64,000 bases of DNA from a virus. The position numbers and the translations under genes were made by a program. The DNA is taken from positions 1 to 64,000 of IMG/VR virus record IMGVR_UViG_3300024999_000044. One strand, written 5' to 3'. Positions 44,452-45,645 of the stretch are shown one piece after another. Every line of letters starts with the position of its first letter. The first letter of the stretch is position 1. The notes beneath the pieces were generated by a model that was not told the DNA's origin, searched no databases, and worked only from the letters and a program-made list of their open reading frames with translations.

Positions 44452-44500
44452 AGAAATTCCCCTGCGACTCGTTGGAGTTTCAGGGGATTTTGTGGGCATT
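44452..44500 (+). terminator. rho-independent terminator
   Basis: AAATTCCCCTG…CAGGGGATTTTGTGGG. Confidence 0.5.
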
Positions 44501-44776
44501 ACACCTCGTATAATACTATTTTCCCAGTCTGTTCAGCATGTCTCTTCTCGGTATTGGCTCCAGTGCTAGTTTCCCATCCTTTGAGTAGGTATATTGCCTC
44601 ACACATGTCAAGCATTGGTATGCATACTTTCATGTATTGCTCTTGTTCAAATCCGGGTGGTAGAACAGCAGGGTTGACACTATGTTACCATAACTACTTA
44701 GTTGATGTTCCGCGCTAGCAAATTTCTCCTTGTATTCTGGGTTACCTGTGATTTTTCCTGCTAAATATACCTTCAT
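44499..44776 (-). pseudogene. DUF4406-like (nucleoside 2-deoxyribosyltransferase-like) gene with an internal frameshift
   Basis: The N-terminal frame gives MKVYLAGKITGNPEYKEKFASAEHQLSSYGN…, then a stop. The -1 frame continues HSVNPAVLPPGFEQEQYMKVCIPMLDMCEAIYLLKGWETSTGANTEKRHAEQTGKIVLYEV. The join is consistent with a 2-nt insertion (or 1-nt deletion) near 44690. Confidence 0.5.
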
Positions 44777-44788
44777 CAATCCAGCCCC

Positions 44789-45645
44789 CTACTTCAAATA
44801 TCCTGCTACAGCAGCAGCCGTGTCATACTTTGAATCACCTGAGAGTAGAACCTCATTGGGGTGCTTGGTAGTAGGACCTCCTACCACAATCAGTTTCTTA
44901 GAGCTTTTGGCATCCTTTGGTATTGCCCTGTCCAGCCCCCGTACAAACATAGCACAGTTGTCGTGCTTAACTGCTACATCTGCACCTGCCCAATAGTCCT
45001 CTTTGGTGTTTAGTAGTATTGCTACTTCTAGCATGTCTGTTCCTCCTTGCTCTTTGTATGATTGGCCAAAATAGTTGCATATTCCTTTAGCATGAGCTGT
45101 CGCTAGAGATTGAATGATCTGTGAATCCTTTAGCATGGAAGAGTCACTTATATTGCTGATAAAGCCATTTTCTGTAAGAATGGCAGGCATGGACGTTTCC
45201 TTTAACACTAGAACATTTTGTATCTTTACCCCCCTGTTGAACCATCCAGCGGATGCTGCAAGTTGTTGTAGCACTAAACTAGCACAGTGTGCTGCTTTAC
45301 CACCCGCACCTGCCACTAATACTTCAAGCCCTGTGGCTGATAAGCTTGTAGCAGAGTTAATATGAACTGAGACAAATAAGTCTGCTTTCACATTTTCAGC
45401 TATCCTAACCCTTGCCCACAATTCTGCATTAGTGTCACCCTCTCTATGTTCCGGAGCATAGTCCCCTTCCCTGGTGAGGATTGTTGTGATACTATTGAAC
45501 TCTAATAGAGTTCTAAGAGCTAGGCAAATTTTTAGTGTAATATCTGCCTCTCTTAAACCATTACCAACAGCCCCAGGATCGTATCCGCCATGAATAGCTA
45601 ATGACCTGGATCAATACATACTATTTTCTGTACTGCTTCAGACAT
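44789..45645 (-). pseudogene. N-acetylmuramoyl-L-alanine amidase (Amidase_3) with a C-terminal cell-wall-binding-like region, disrupted by an 11-nt insertion
   Basis: MSEAVQKIVCIDPGH, then a stop. Another frame continues IHGGYDPGAVGNGLREADITLKI…ADLFVSVHINS. Deleting TAGCTATTCAT at about 45590-45600 restores the canonical IDPGHGGYDPGA. The C-terminus has a GDSKYDTAAAVAGYL CW_binding_2-like motif. Confidence 0.6.

Follow-up and report, generated by a model that had tools for sequence, protein, structure and literature searches.

How is a phage endolysin gene read when its frame closes at the codon of an active-site residue? The question is raised by a viral stretch of 64,000 nucleotides (nt) (positions 1 to 64,000 of the IMG/VR record IMGVR_UViG_3300024999_000044; the whole stretch is called the window here), in which a minus-strand gene for an Amidase_3-type endolysin begins with an ATG at 45645, encodes MSEAVQKIVCIDPGH and runs into a TAG at 45600-45598. 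The last codon before this stop (CAT, 45603-45601) encodes the first zinc-ligand His, and the conserved continuation (GGC GGA TAC GAT..., GGYDPGAV) resumes from 45589 in a different frame. Comparison with related loci makes it probable that the interruption represents the right-hand end of a mobile HNH homing-endonuclease cassette and that it is read by a short ribosome hop. On balance we also lean towards regarding it as one member of a widespread, so far undescribed class of programmed short-range bypassing, in which HNH cassettes carry His-stop-1-8 nt-His inserts that would combine DNA immunity with a hop. The parts of the locus, in 5' to 3' order on the minus strand, are the following.

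45674-45708, minus strand: terminator-like hairpin of the upstream gene, the left edge of a tract of about 96% identity common to the sister locus L006 described below.
45638-45661, minus strand: HNH remnant AAAGAGGTGATGCCAAATGTCTGA, in which ..KEVMPNV* represents the last HNH codons and doubles as Shine-Dalgarno (SD) and exon start region.
45601-45645, minus strand: replacement 5' exon (MSEAVQKIVCIDPGH), aligning to intact amidase N-termini (..CLDPGH followed by GGYDPGA) and to CwlV.
45590-45600, minus strand: 11-nt coding gap composed of UAG (45600-45598), the spacer CTATT (45597-45593) and a His codon CAT (45592-45590).
44789-45589, minus strand: amidase body with the Amidase_3 catalytic domain and a C-terminal wall-binding-type domain, 266 codons plus stop, identified by a full-length Pfam match.

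As it stands the gene is not one uninterrupted frame, the TAG and the 11-nt gap following codon 15. Taking out the 11 nt at 45600-45590 (TAGCTATTCAT), as the initial annotation had proposed, does restore a protein of 281 amino acids (aa) that matches the Amidase_3 profile (PF01520) over its full length (1-174 of 174, E 9.9e-45, 153 bits with a cut-off of 27) and aligns with the solved amidase CwlV (1jwq) starting at CwlV residue 2. In a 19-sequence alignment H15, E29, H91 and E155 occupy invariant columns; H15 precedes the gap and the remaining three follow it. Every invariant family residue is kept in both interrupted genes, that of the window and that of L006. The intact homologues, mostly from Desulfosporosinus and about 65% identical, read DPGH-GGYDPGA without a break, and the body in the window is likewise about 65% identical to intact 271-aa Desulfosporosinus amidases. 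The first 56 or so codons 3' of the gap offer no canonical in-frame start, yet the protein they encode is strongly conserved. No second lesion was found in the window amidase, and the extra lesions, lost residues and relaxed constraint of a unitary pseudogene are not seen in it, though the interruption may be recent.

The breaks in the amidase gene and in its DUF4406-like neighbor, both of which translation and the profile matches after correction confirm to be out of frame, are properties of the DNA. The amidase junction is identical in L001 (ENA ERZ28564383), L002 (JGI 3300001041), L009 (ENA ERZ27254726) and L010 (Logan SRR3309324), and at the DUF4406 break L001, L009 and L010 likewise agree exactly with the window; the assemblies compared comprise an ENA scaffold, a JGI contig, a MEGAHIT contig and a Logan contig, all from one groundwater study. 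Such agreement across independent assemblies excludes for practical purposes the assembly error that had been offered as an explanation. Logan contigs of both lineages (the starts of L010 and L031 and the end of L003, at about 45658-45677 of the window) break at one 33-nt sequence, which is shared exactly by the window phage and a co-occurring sister phage of the L006 type. These breaks are an assembly-graph effect of the mobile cassette and not heterogeneity at the insertion; population heterogeneity was considered for the contig ends and ruled out, as they coincide with this 33-mer.

The sister locus L006 is interrupted at the same codon (...GGT CAT TAG CTGACTC GGA GGA TAT...) with a gap of 10 nt, and the L006-type junction is identical in 12 loci. 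The amidase bodies of the window and L006 share 71% protein identity, with synonymous divergence at saturation (dS about 2.4) and a ratio of nonsynonymous to synonymous substitution rates (dN/dS) of 0.085, and the two loci are about 96% identical from the hairpin to the TAGCT as against 69% in the amidase body. In L006 an open reading frame (ORF) of 164 aa with an HNH domain sits between the upstream terminator hairpin and the amidase SD, whereas the window has no HNH ORF, only its final codons together with the exon and the gap. The exon type is the same in both (3 differences in 45 nt), and the sequence at 45638-45661 is identical in L006, where it ends the intact HNH ORF; since this stretch corresponds to the C-terminal HNH codons, the window derives from an HNH-bearing cassette. 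Polymorphism within the lineage (about 7 single-nucleotide differences) is too scarce to inform on selection after the interruption.

The closest relatives of the L006 HNH protein (45-61% identity) are encoded directly upstream of Amidase_3 genes on unrelated contigs, among them a prophage end with the order holin-HNH-amidase-integrase and an assembly of Tepidanaerobacter syntrophicus (L089). Several of these HNH proteins start with an amidase N-terminus (MKIVVLDPGHG.., MRVCLDPGH.., MKVCIDHGHGGY..), which indicates that the insertion point of the element is within the amidase gene, immediately past the DPGHGG codons, and the junctions confirm it. The resulting cassette consists of the original 5' fragment of the amidase (often fused to the HNH ORF), the HNH ORF itself, an SD and ATG, an exon of 11-15 codons whose last four encode D-[P/A]-G-H, a stop, a few nucleotides and then the amidase body. 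In the HNH homologues the C-terminus reads GRF..KEV(V/M), and its codons overlie the same SD. An HNH ORF stands directly upstream in L006, L039, L040/42, L043/44, L045, L046, L089, L099, L101 and the isolate PK5.1, and several interrupted alleles without HNH are, like that of the window, located directly after holin-like genes. Eight cassette types, with HNH proteins 44-67% identical to one another, all have a strong SD, an ATG and [I/L]-D-[P/A]-G-H, and in their exons the codons for D, G and H are invariant at positions 1 and 2 and variable at position 3. This restriction of variation to third positions indicates translation of the replacement exon and a role for its protein sequence, which is understandable only if exon and body are joined. 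Native N-termini are 2-5 residues shorter than the replacement exons, and the nascent chain has 11-15 residues. The cassette also moves, as L040 and L042 carry the same HNH protein (P0131) beside different amidase bodies (dS 1.15) with gaps of 7 and 6 nt (TAG G CAC and TAG CAT), pointing to very recent transfer between different phages.

Two further observations were made among the HNH relatives. A more distant member of the family (L091, 2001-3051) lies in a lysis cassette between a holin gene and an uninterrupted amidase gene (..LDAGHGFNFKTGKGD..), so that the stop-gap insert is not tied to every HNH-family member. The cassette-bearing Tepidanaerobacter contig (L089, 523-1578) has, immediately upstream of its lysis region, a reverse transcriptase gene beside a bAvd-like gene, a pairing suggestive of a diversity-generating retroelement. 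Searches for additional loci of the window/L006 type yielded little: DNA pattern scans for the junction returned only chance non-amidase matches, another scan returned none, and the scan of a single metagenome recovered L006-type contigs only. In blastn the 4-kb region had no match among GenBank phages, and in tblastn the HNH protein matched PK5.1 only. Short or partial matches from the amidase search (200-254 aa), tried as extra interrupted lineages, all have intact N-termini and were rejected.

The isolate in question, Geobacillus phage vB_GthS_PK5.1, forms plaques and has one endolysin, with an HNH gene between holin and endolysin (PMC10459684). Its genome (OP341628.1) reads MVRIVLDAGHGGRW*, then the HNH gene, then MTQRLLKIVLDAGH TAG CAC GGC GGC..., and the small ORF MVRIVLDAGHGGRW* upstream of the HNH gene is the displaced original 5' end of the amidase gene. 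The HNH protein is 53% identical to that of L006. In GenBank the gp21 endolysin (L102; OP341628.1, 16656-17264) is started at an internal TTG, leaving out the first two zinc ligands, and the PK5.1 genome has no other annotated lysin. The sister phage PK3.6 has an uninterrupted gene and no HNH; beyond a divergent stretch of about 110 nt after the junction it equals PK5.1 exactly, which is typical of a co-conversion tract.

In all, 19 distinct alleles with a His take-off codon were collected from unrelated Firmicute phages, most of them adjoining, just downstream, one family of HNH homing endonucleases inserted within Amidase_3 genes; one further allele (L046) has a Gly take-off codon. They share the same anatomy, namely a His codon, a stop, 1-8 further nt and GGNGGN. 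The stop follows the take-off codon directly in 19 of the 19 (TAG in 16, TAA in 2, TGA in 1), the amidase body of 216-266 aa is intact wherever the contig allows, and a second lesion occurs in none of them. Gap lengths are 4, 5, 6, 7, 10 and 11 nt and represent all three frames, so only a frame-independent mechanism would rescue every allele. A His triplet stands just before the resume codon in 16 of the 19, for instance CAT in the window (11 nt) and CAC in L040 (7 nt), the 6-nt CAY TAG CAY being the commonest form; in L046 take-off and landing have both shifted to GGT. An unbiased IMG/VR scan for D[PA]GH-NNN-HGG-x-D gave 24 matches, in which NNN was a stop in 11 of 11 true amidase contexts, and the 13 matches with a sense codon were all due to chance (0 of 13 amidases). 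It is therefore the stop that is kept, and not a tolerated two-residue insertion.

These observations bear on two proposals made for the amidase by the initial annotation. That the break arose from a small insertion and not from a point error is borne out, while the TCAT duplication said to flank it is better read as the take-off and landing His codons, because other alleles (CAT...CAC) keep the His and not an exact DNA repeat. The notion of a decayed lysis module does not hold for the amidase, since the same break recurs in L006 and at least seven other cassette lineages with downstream ORFs intact and catalytic residues retained.

Comparison establishes the architecture and distribution of the cassette, and from these, by the anatomical parallel to the mobA/gene 60 system of phage T4, we infer an immunity function and a hop from CAU to CAU. 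The window itself presents matched take-off and landing codons, a stop 3' of the take-off and linkage to a homing endonuclease (as a remnant). The HNH cassette, which brings a new SD, a new ATG and a replacement exon into the gene, would target the DNA encoding the zinc-ligand motif of Amidase_3 endolysin genes (D-[P/A]-G-H followed by G-G). The short insert (11 nt in the window) would break the HNH recognition site and so make a cassette-bearing genome immune to cutting. During translation, while CAU occupies the P site and UAG-C, which is decoded slowly, the A site, peptidyl-tRNA-His would detach, the mRNA would slide by 11 nt and the tRNA would re-pair at the landing CAU, giving a native ...IDPGH-GGYDPGA... 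product; the predicted junction peptides are IVLDAGHGGTDSGAVGNGLR in PK5.1 and IVCIDPGHGGYDPGAVGNGLR in the window. The window lineage has lost the HNH ORF while keeping the insert, and the sister L006 retains the HNH.

Several points weigh against this account. Unprogrammed stop-hops in E. coli are only about 1% efficient. The nascent peptide is only 15 residues long, unlike the T4 signal, and in three alleles the landing triplet is near-cognate only (CTC in L006, AAT in L039, AAC in L045). Folding revealed no significant or conserved RNA structure near the site; hairpins can be drawn around it, but they differ between the window and L006 and the folding energies are no better than those of shuffled sequences (z -0.25 and -0.56). 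An Rfam search of 44000-46500 gave no match at E<=1 and no group I/II intron. Plaques of PK5.1 do not prove that its amidase functions, given that in hosts of the Bacillus type the host's own autolysins, once triggered by holin, might be enough for plaque formation with no endolysin. The M23 peptidase at 8727-9281 is, as first noted, the sole other murein hydrolase domain found within the window, and this examination for a second lysin covered 64 kb of a genome of about 142 kb. Finally, the cassette has been recently mobile. Between L043 and PK5.1 the HNH genes differ by a dS of 0.10 (97% identical) and the amidase bodies by 1.44, and the window/L006 tract shows the same disparity (about 96% versus 69%). 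Because the bodies are much older than the HNH/exon tract, their low dN/dS (0.085, 0.075 and 0.12) mostly predates the interruption and is no proof of later selection; it was down-weighted as such evidence.

The same facts feed the strongest of the other explanations, which we regard as possible though unlikely, that the stop-gap is an endonuclease-immunity scar that inactivates the amidase. Homing would be purely selfish, lysis would be left to host autolysins, the M23 peptidase or a second lysin, and the bodies would still be intact because the invasions are recent. The near-identity of the HNH genes and of the window/L006 tract beside divergent bodies fits this explanation well, as do the three alleles without a cognate landing codon, the failure to find a stimulatory RNA structure and the adjacent DUF4406 break, which shows that the region tolerates gene loss. 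It accounts poorly for the conservation of the exon, whose SD, ATG and D-[PA]-G-H are kept with variation at third positions only, as a dead-end peptide of 12-15 aa would not stay so conserved. A scar would also not be expected to contain always a stop and never a sense codon as the inserted codon, to keep His landing codons in out-of-frame alleles, to switch jointly to GGT/GGT in L046 or to remain free of a second lesion in all 19 alleles. Moreover, the interrupted alleles lie in canonical holin-amidase lysis cassettes, including that of a viable isolate with one endolysin (PMC10459684).

Compared with the proposed hop, other forms of recoding or restart appear very unlikely: read-through of UAG (by a near-cognate, suppressor or pyrrolysine tRNA) together with a frameshift, a -1 or +1 frameshift, or re-initiation at ATT 45595-45593. 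In their favor, the 6-nt insertions are in frame, so that read-through would give H-X-H-GG, and natural homologues (P0033, P0044 and P0048) tolerate two-residue insertions at this place; Desulfosporosinus-type hosts can carry a pyrrolysine system; and the ATT of the window is in frame and preceded by AGG. Against them, gaps of 4, 5, 7, 10 and 11 nt are out of frame, and no X XXY YYZ slippery heptamer of a programmed frameshift site occurs at or before the amidase stop or at the DUF4406 break. In the window TAG is a normal stop (it ends 20 of the 59 long ORFs) and only a tRNA-Met was found, which led to rejection of TAG reassignment and of a phage suppressor tRNA; a suppressor tRNA was likewise ruled out for PK5.1, where no tRNA genes are present. 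Out of frame, lacking a slippery site and with TAG as a normal stop, the window allele cannot be rescued by read-through or frameshifting. In L006 TAG and TGA close the two other frames within 10 nt and the amidase frame has no start-like codon, and a protein begun past the gap would be missing the first beta-strand. An artefact of sequencing or assembly has a negligible probability, for although the window was assembled from a metagenome and Logan contigs break close to the gene, the junction is the same in four assemblies from different assemblers and samples, the breaks are accounted for by the 33-nt exact match with the L006-type phage and the same structure occurs in an isolate genome.

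The second interrupted gene lies immediately downstream of the amidase gene.

44499-44776, minus strand: DUF4406 gene in two pieces (44776-44630 and 44684-44499) with a 1-nt deletion at about 44679-44680.

Once joined, the pieces match the DUF4406 profile (PF14359) from 1 to 91 of 91 (E 3e-30), the full length being reached only after frame correction. The sister lineage (L006-L008 and others) has an intact 92-aa orthologue (...GNIVINPAILPPGF; ...QLINDGNIVINPAILPPGF), and in the DNA alignment with L006 the window lacks one base in the codon after ATA (GGT AAC ATA G-T GTC AAC CCT). Judged by this alignment, the 2-nt insertion after SSYG that had been suggested is not the parsimonious reading, and the frameshift is a 1-nt deletion instead, specific to the lineage, the single lesion of the gene and probably the mark of a recent pseudogene. 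It is unrelated to the amidase interruption. Convergent with the amidase/DUF4406 operon is a 285-aa ORF (43575-44432, plus strand) without a family match, kept in the sister lineage with 60% aa identity and a dN/dS of about 0.17. The sister lineage has a Tad2-like gene (L006, 5925-6323) between DUF4406 and the convergent ORF, there of 274 aa, and the window is without it. A 69-aa gene of the Acb2/Tad1-hairpin type (anti-defence sponge family) is located at 47195-47404 (minus strand), upstream of a HAD gene.

Other mobile elements are present in the same phage. A UvrD-type helicase gene (12518-15769, plus strand; an ORF of 1083 aa) contains an intein with a LAGLIDADG domain (Intein_splicing, LAGLIDADG_3), which is another such element. 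A 290-aa ORF with NUMOD3-type repeats (GEGNPMYGK..HTEETKQKM; 56789-57661, plus strand) overlaps the start of the terminase large subunit gene (57627-59291) and is weakly similar in tblastn to the N-terminal half of the L006 HNH protein; it is probably a further free-standing homing endonuclease beside the terminase gene. Within 1-27100 of the window one ORF matches HNH_3 (E 6e-12) and another Band_7/SPFH (E 2e-29), and the ORF at 9691-12189 has a major-vault-protein shoulder and repeat domains.

The T4 gene 60 bypass element reportedly comes with the HNH homing endonuclease mobA, a pairing that Bonocora and colleagues are said to have described in 2011. In that system the bypassed insert protects against the endonuclease and persists after its loss (Manning and Atkins, bioRxiv 10.1101/2022.08.31.505936). 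The two systems agree in having an HNH endonuclease inside a conserved gene at an invariant active-site motif, a cassette that brings a new start and N-terminal segment, an insert that begins with UAG(C) right after the take-off codon, matching take-off and landing codons with wobble variants, and an insert kept after endonuclease loss, with recent horizontal spread and co-conversion tracts. They differ in the target (a topoisomerase in T4, an Amidase_3 endolysin in Firmicute phages here), in the gap (50 nt as opposed to 4-11 nt) and in the nascent chain, limited here to 11-15 residues; the present junctions gave no sign of a take-off stem-loop or mini-SD, and bypassing at them is only deduced. 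The likeness is one of anatomy, and sequence homology is not expected.

Two other kinds of bypassing are comparable, both as far as they are summarised in bioRxiv 10.1101/2022.08.31.505936. In unprogrammed stop-hops of E. coli, e.g., CUU UAG CUA (Weiss et al., 1987), peptidyl-tRNA passes over a slow stop to a nearby cognate codon in any frame, and CAY UAG CAY has the same form; these hops are synthetic or of low efficiency and have no known biological role, whereas the junctions described here are kept in natural genes of an essential type and go with a mobile element. The 'byp' elements of Magnusiomyces capitatus mitochondria (Lang et al., 2014; Nosek et al., 2015) are also mobile in-gene inserts bypassed by the ribosome, with take-off/landing pairs that are sometimes imperfect. 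As summarised there, they differ in being GC-cluster-like and 27-55 nt long, in belonging to a eukaryotic organelle, in having no endonuclease gene and in having an unassigned sense codon in the A site.

Endolysin genes and other conserved genes are favored homing sites, and elements that keep the host gene working are known by other routes. Homing endonucleases in phage lysin genes are rendered harmless by group I introns, as in lysK of staphylococcal phage K and in lysins of S. thermophilus phages, and in nrdA/mobE of phage Aeh1 the homing insertion is made harmless by splitting the gene into pieces. The window differs from both, since its 11-nt gap holds no intron (in line with the negative Rfam search) and there are no two functional pieces, the upstream one having 15 residues and the downstream one no start. 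A 2022 survey of gene 60 relatives states that comparable bypassing had not been reported from other phages (bioRxiv 10.1101/2022.08.31.505936), and a full-text literature search returned no report joining bypassing with endolysin, amidase or HNH.

Endolysins of this kind are now described as N-terminally truncated (gp21 of PK5.1) or as fragments (the window contigs), and would be mis-cloned in endolysin engineering. Even if the insert does inactivate the amidase, there would still be an undescribed homing endonuclease family that knocks out phage endolysins at active-site codons, which would be unusual. Very few natural systems with programmed bypassing are known, namely the relatives of T4 gene 60 and a single yeast mitochondrion. 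If the proposed hop is real, a homing endonuclease and ribosome hopping would have become coupled in nature a second, independent time, moreover in the cultivable phage PK5.1, and the gaps of 4-11 nt would provide a minimal natural system for studying take-off and landing. Homing endonucleases that enter genes at active-site codons would then have arrived repeatedly at the same solution, an immunising insert plus a hop.

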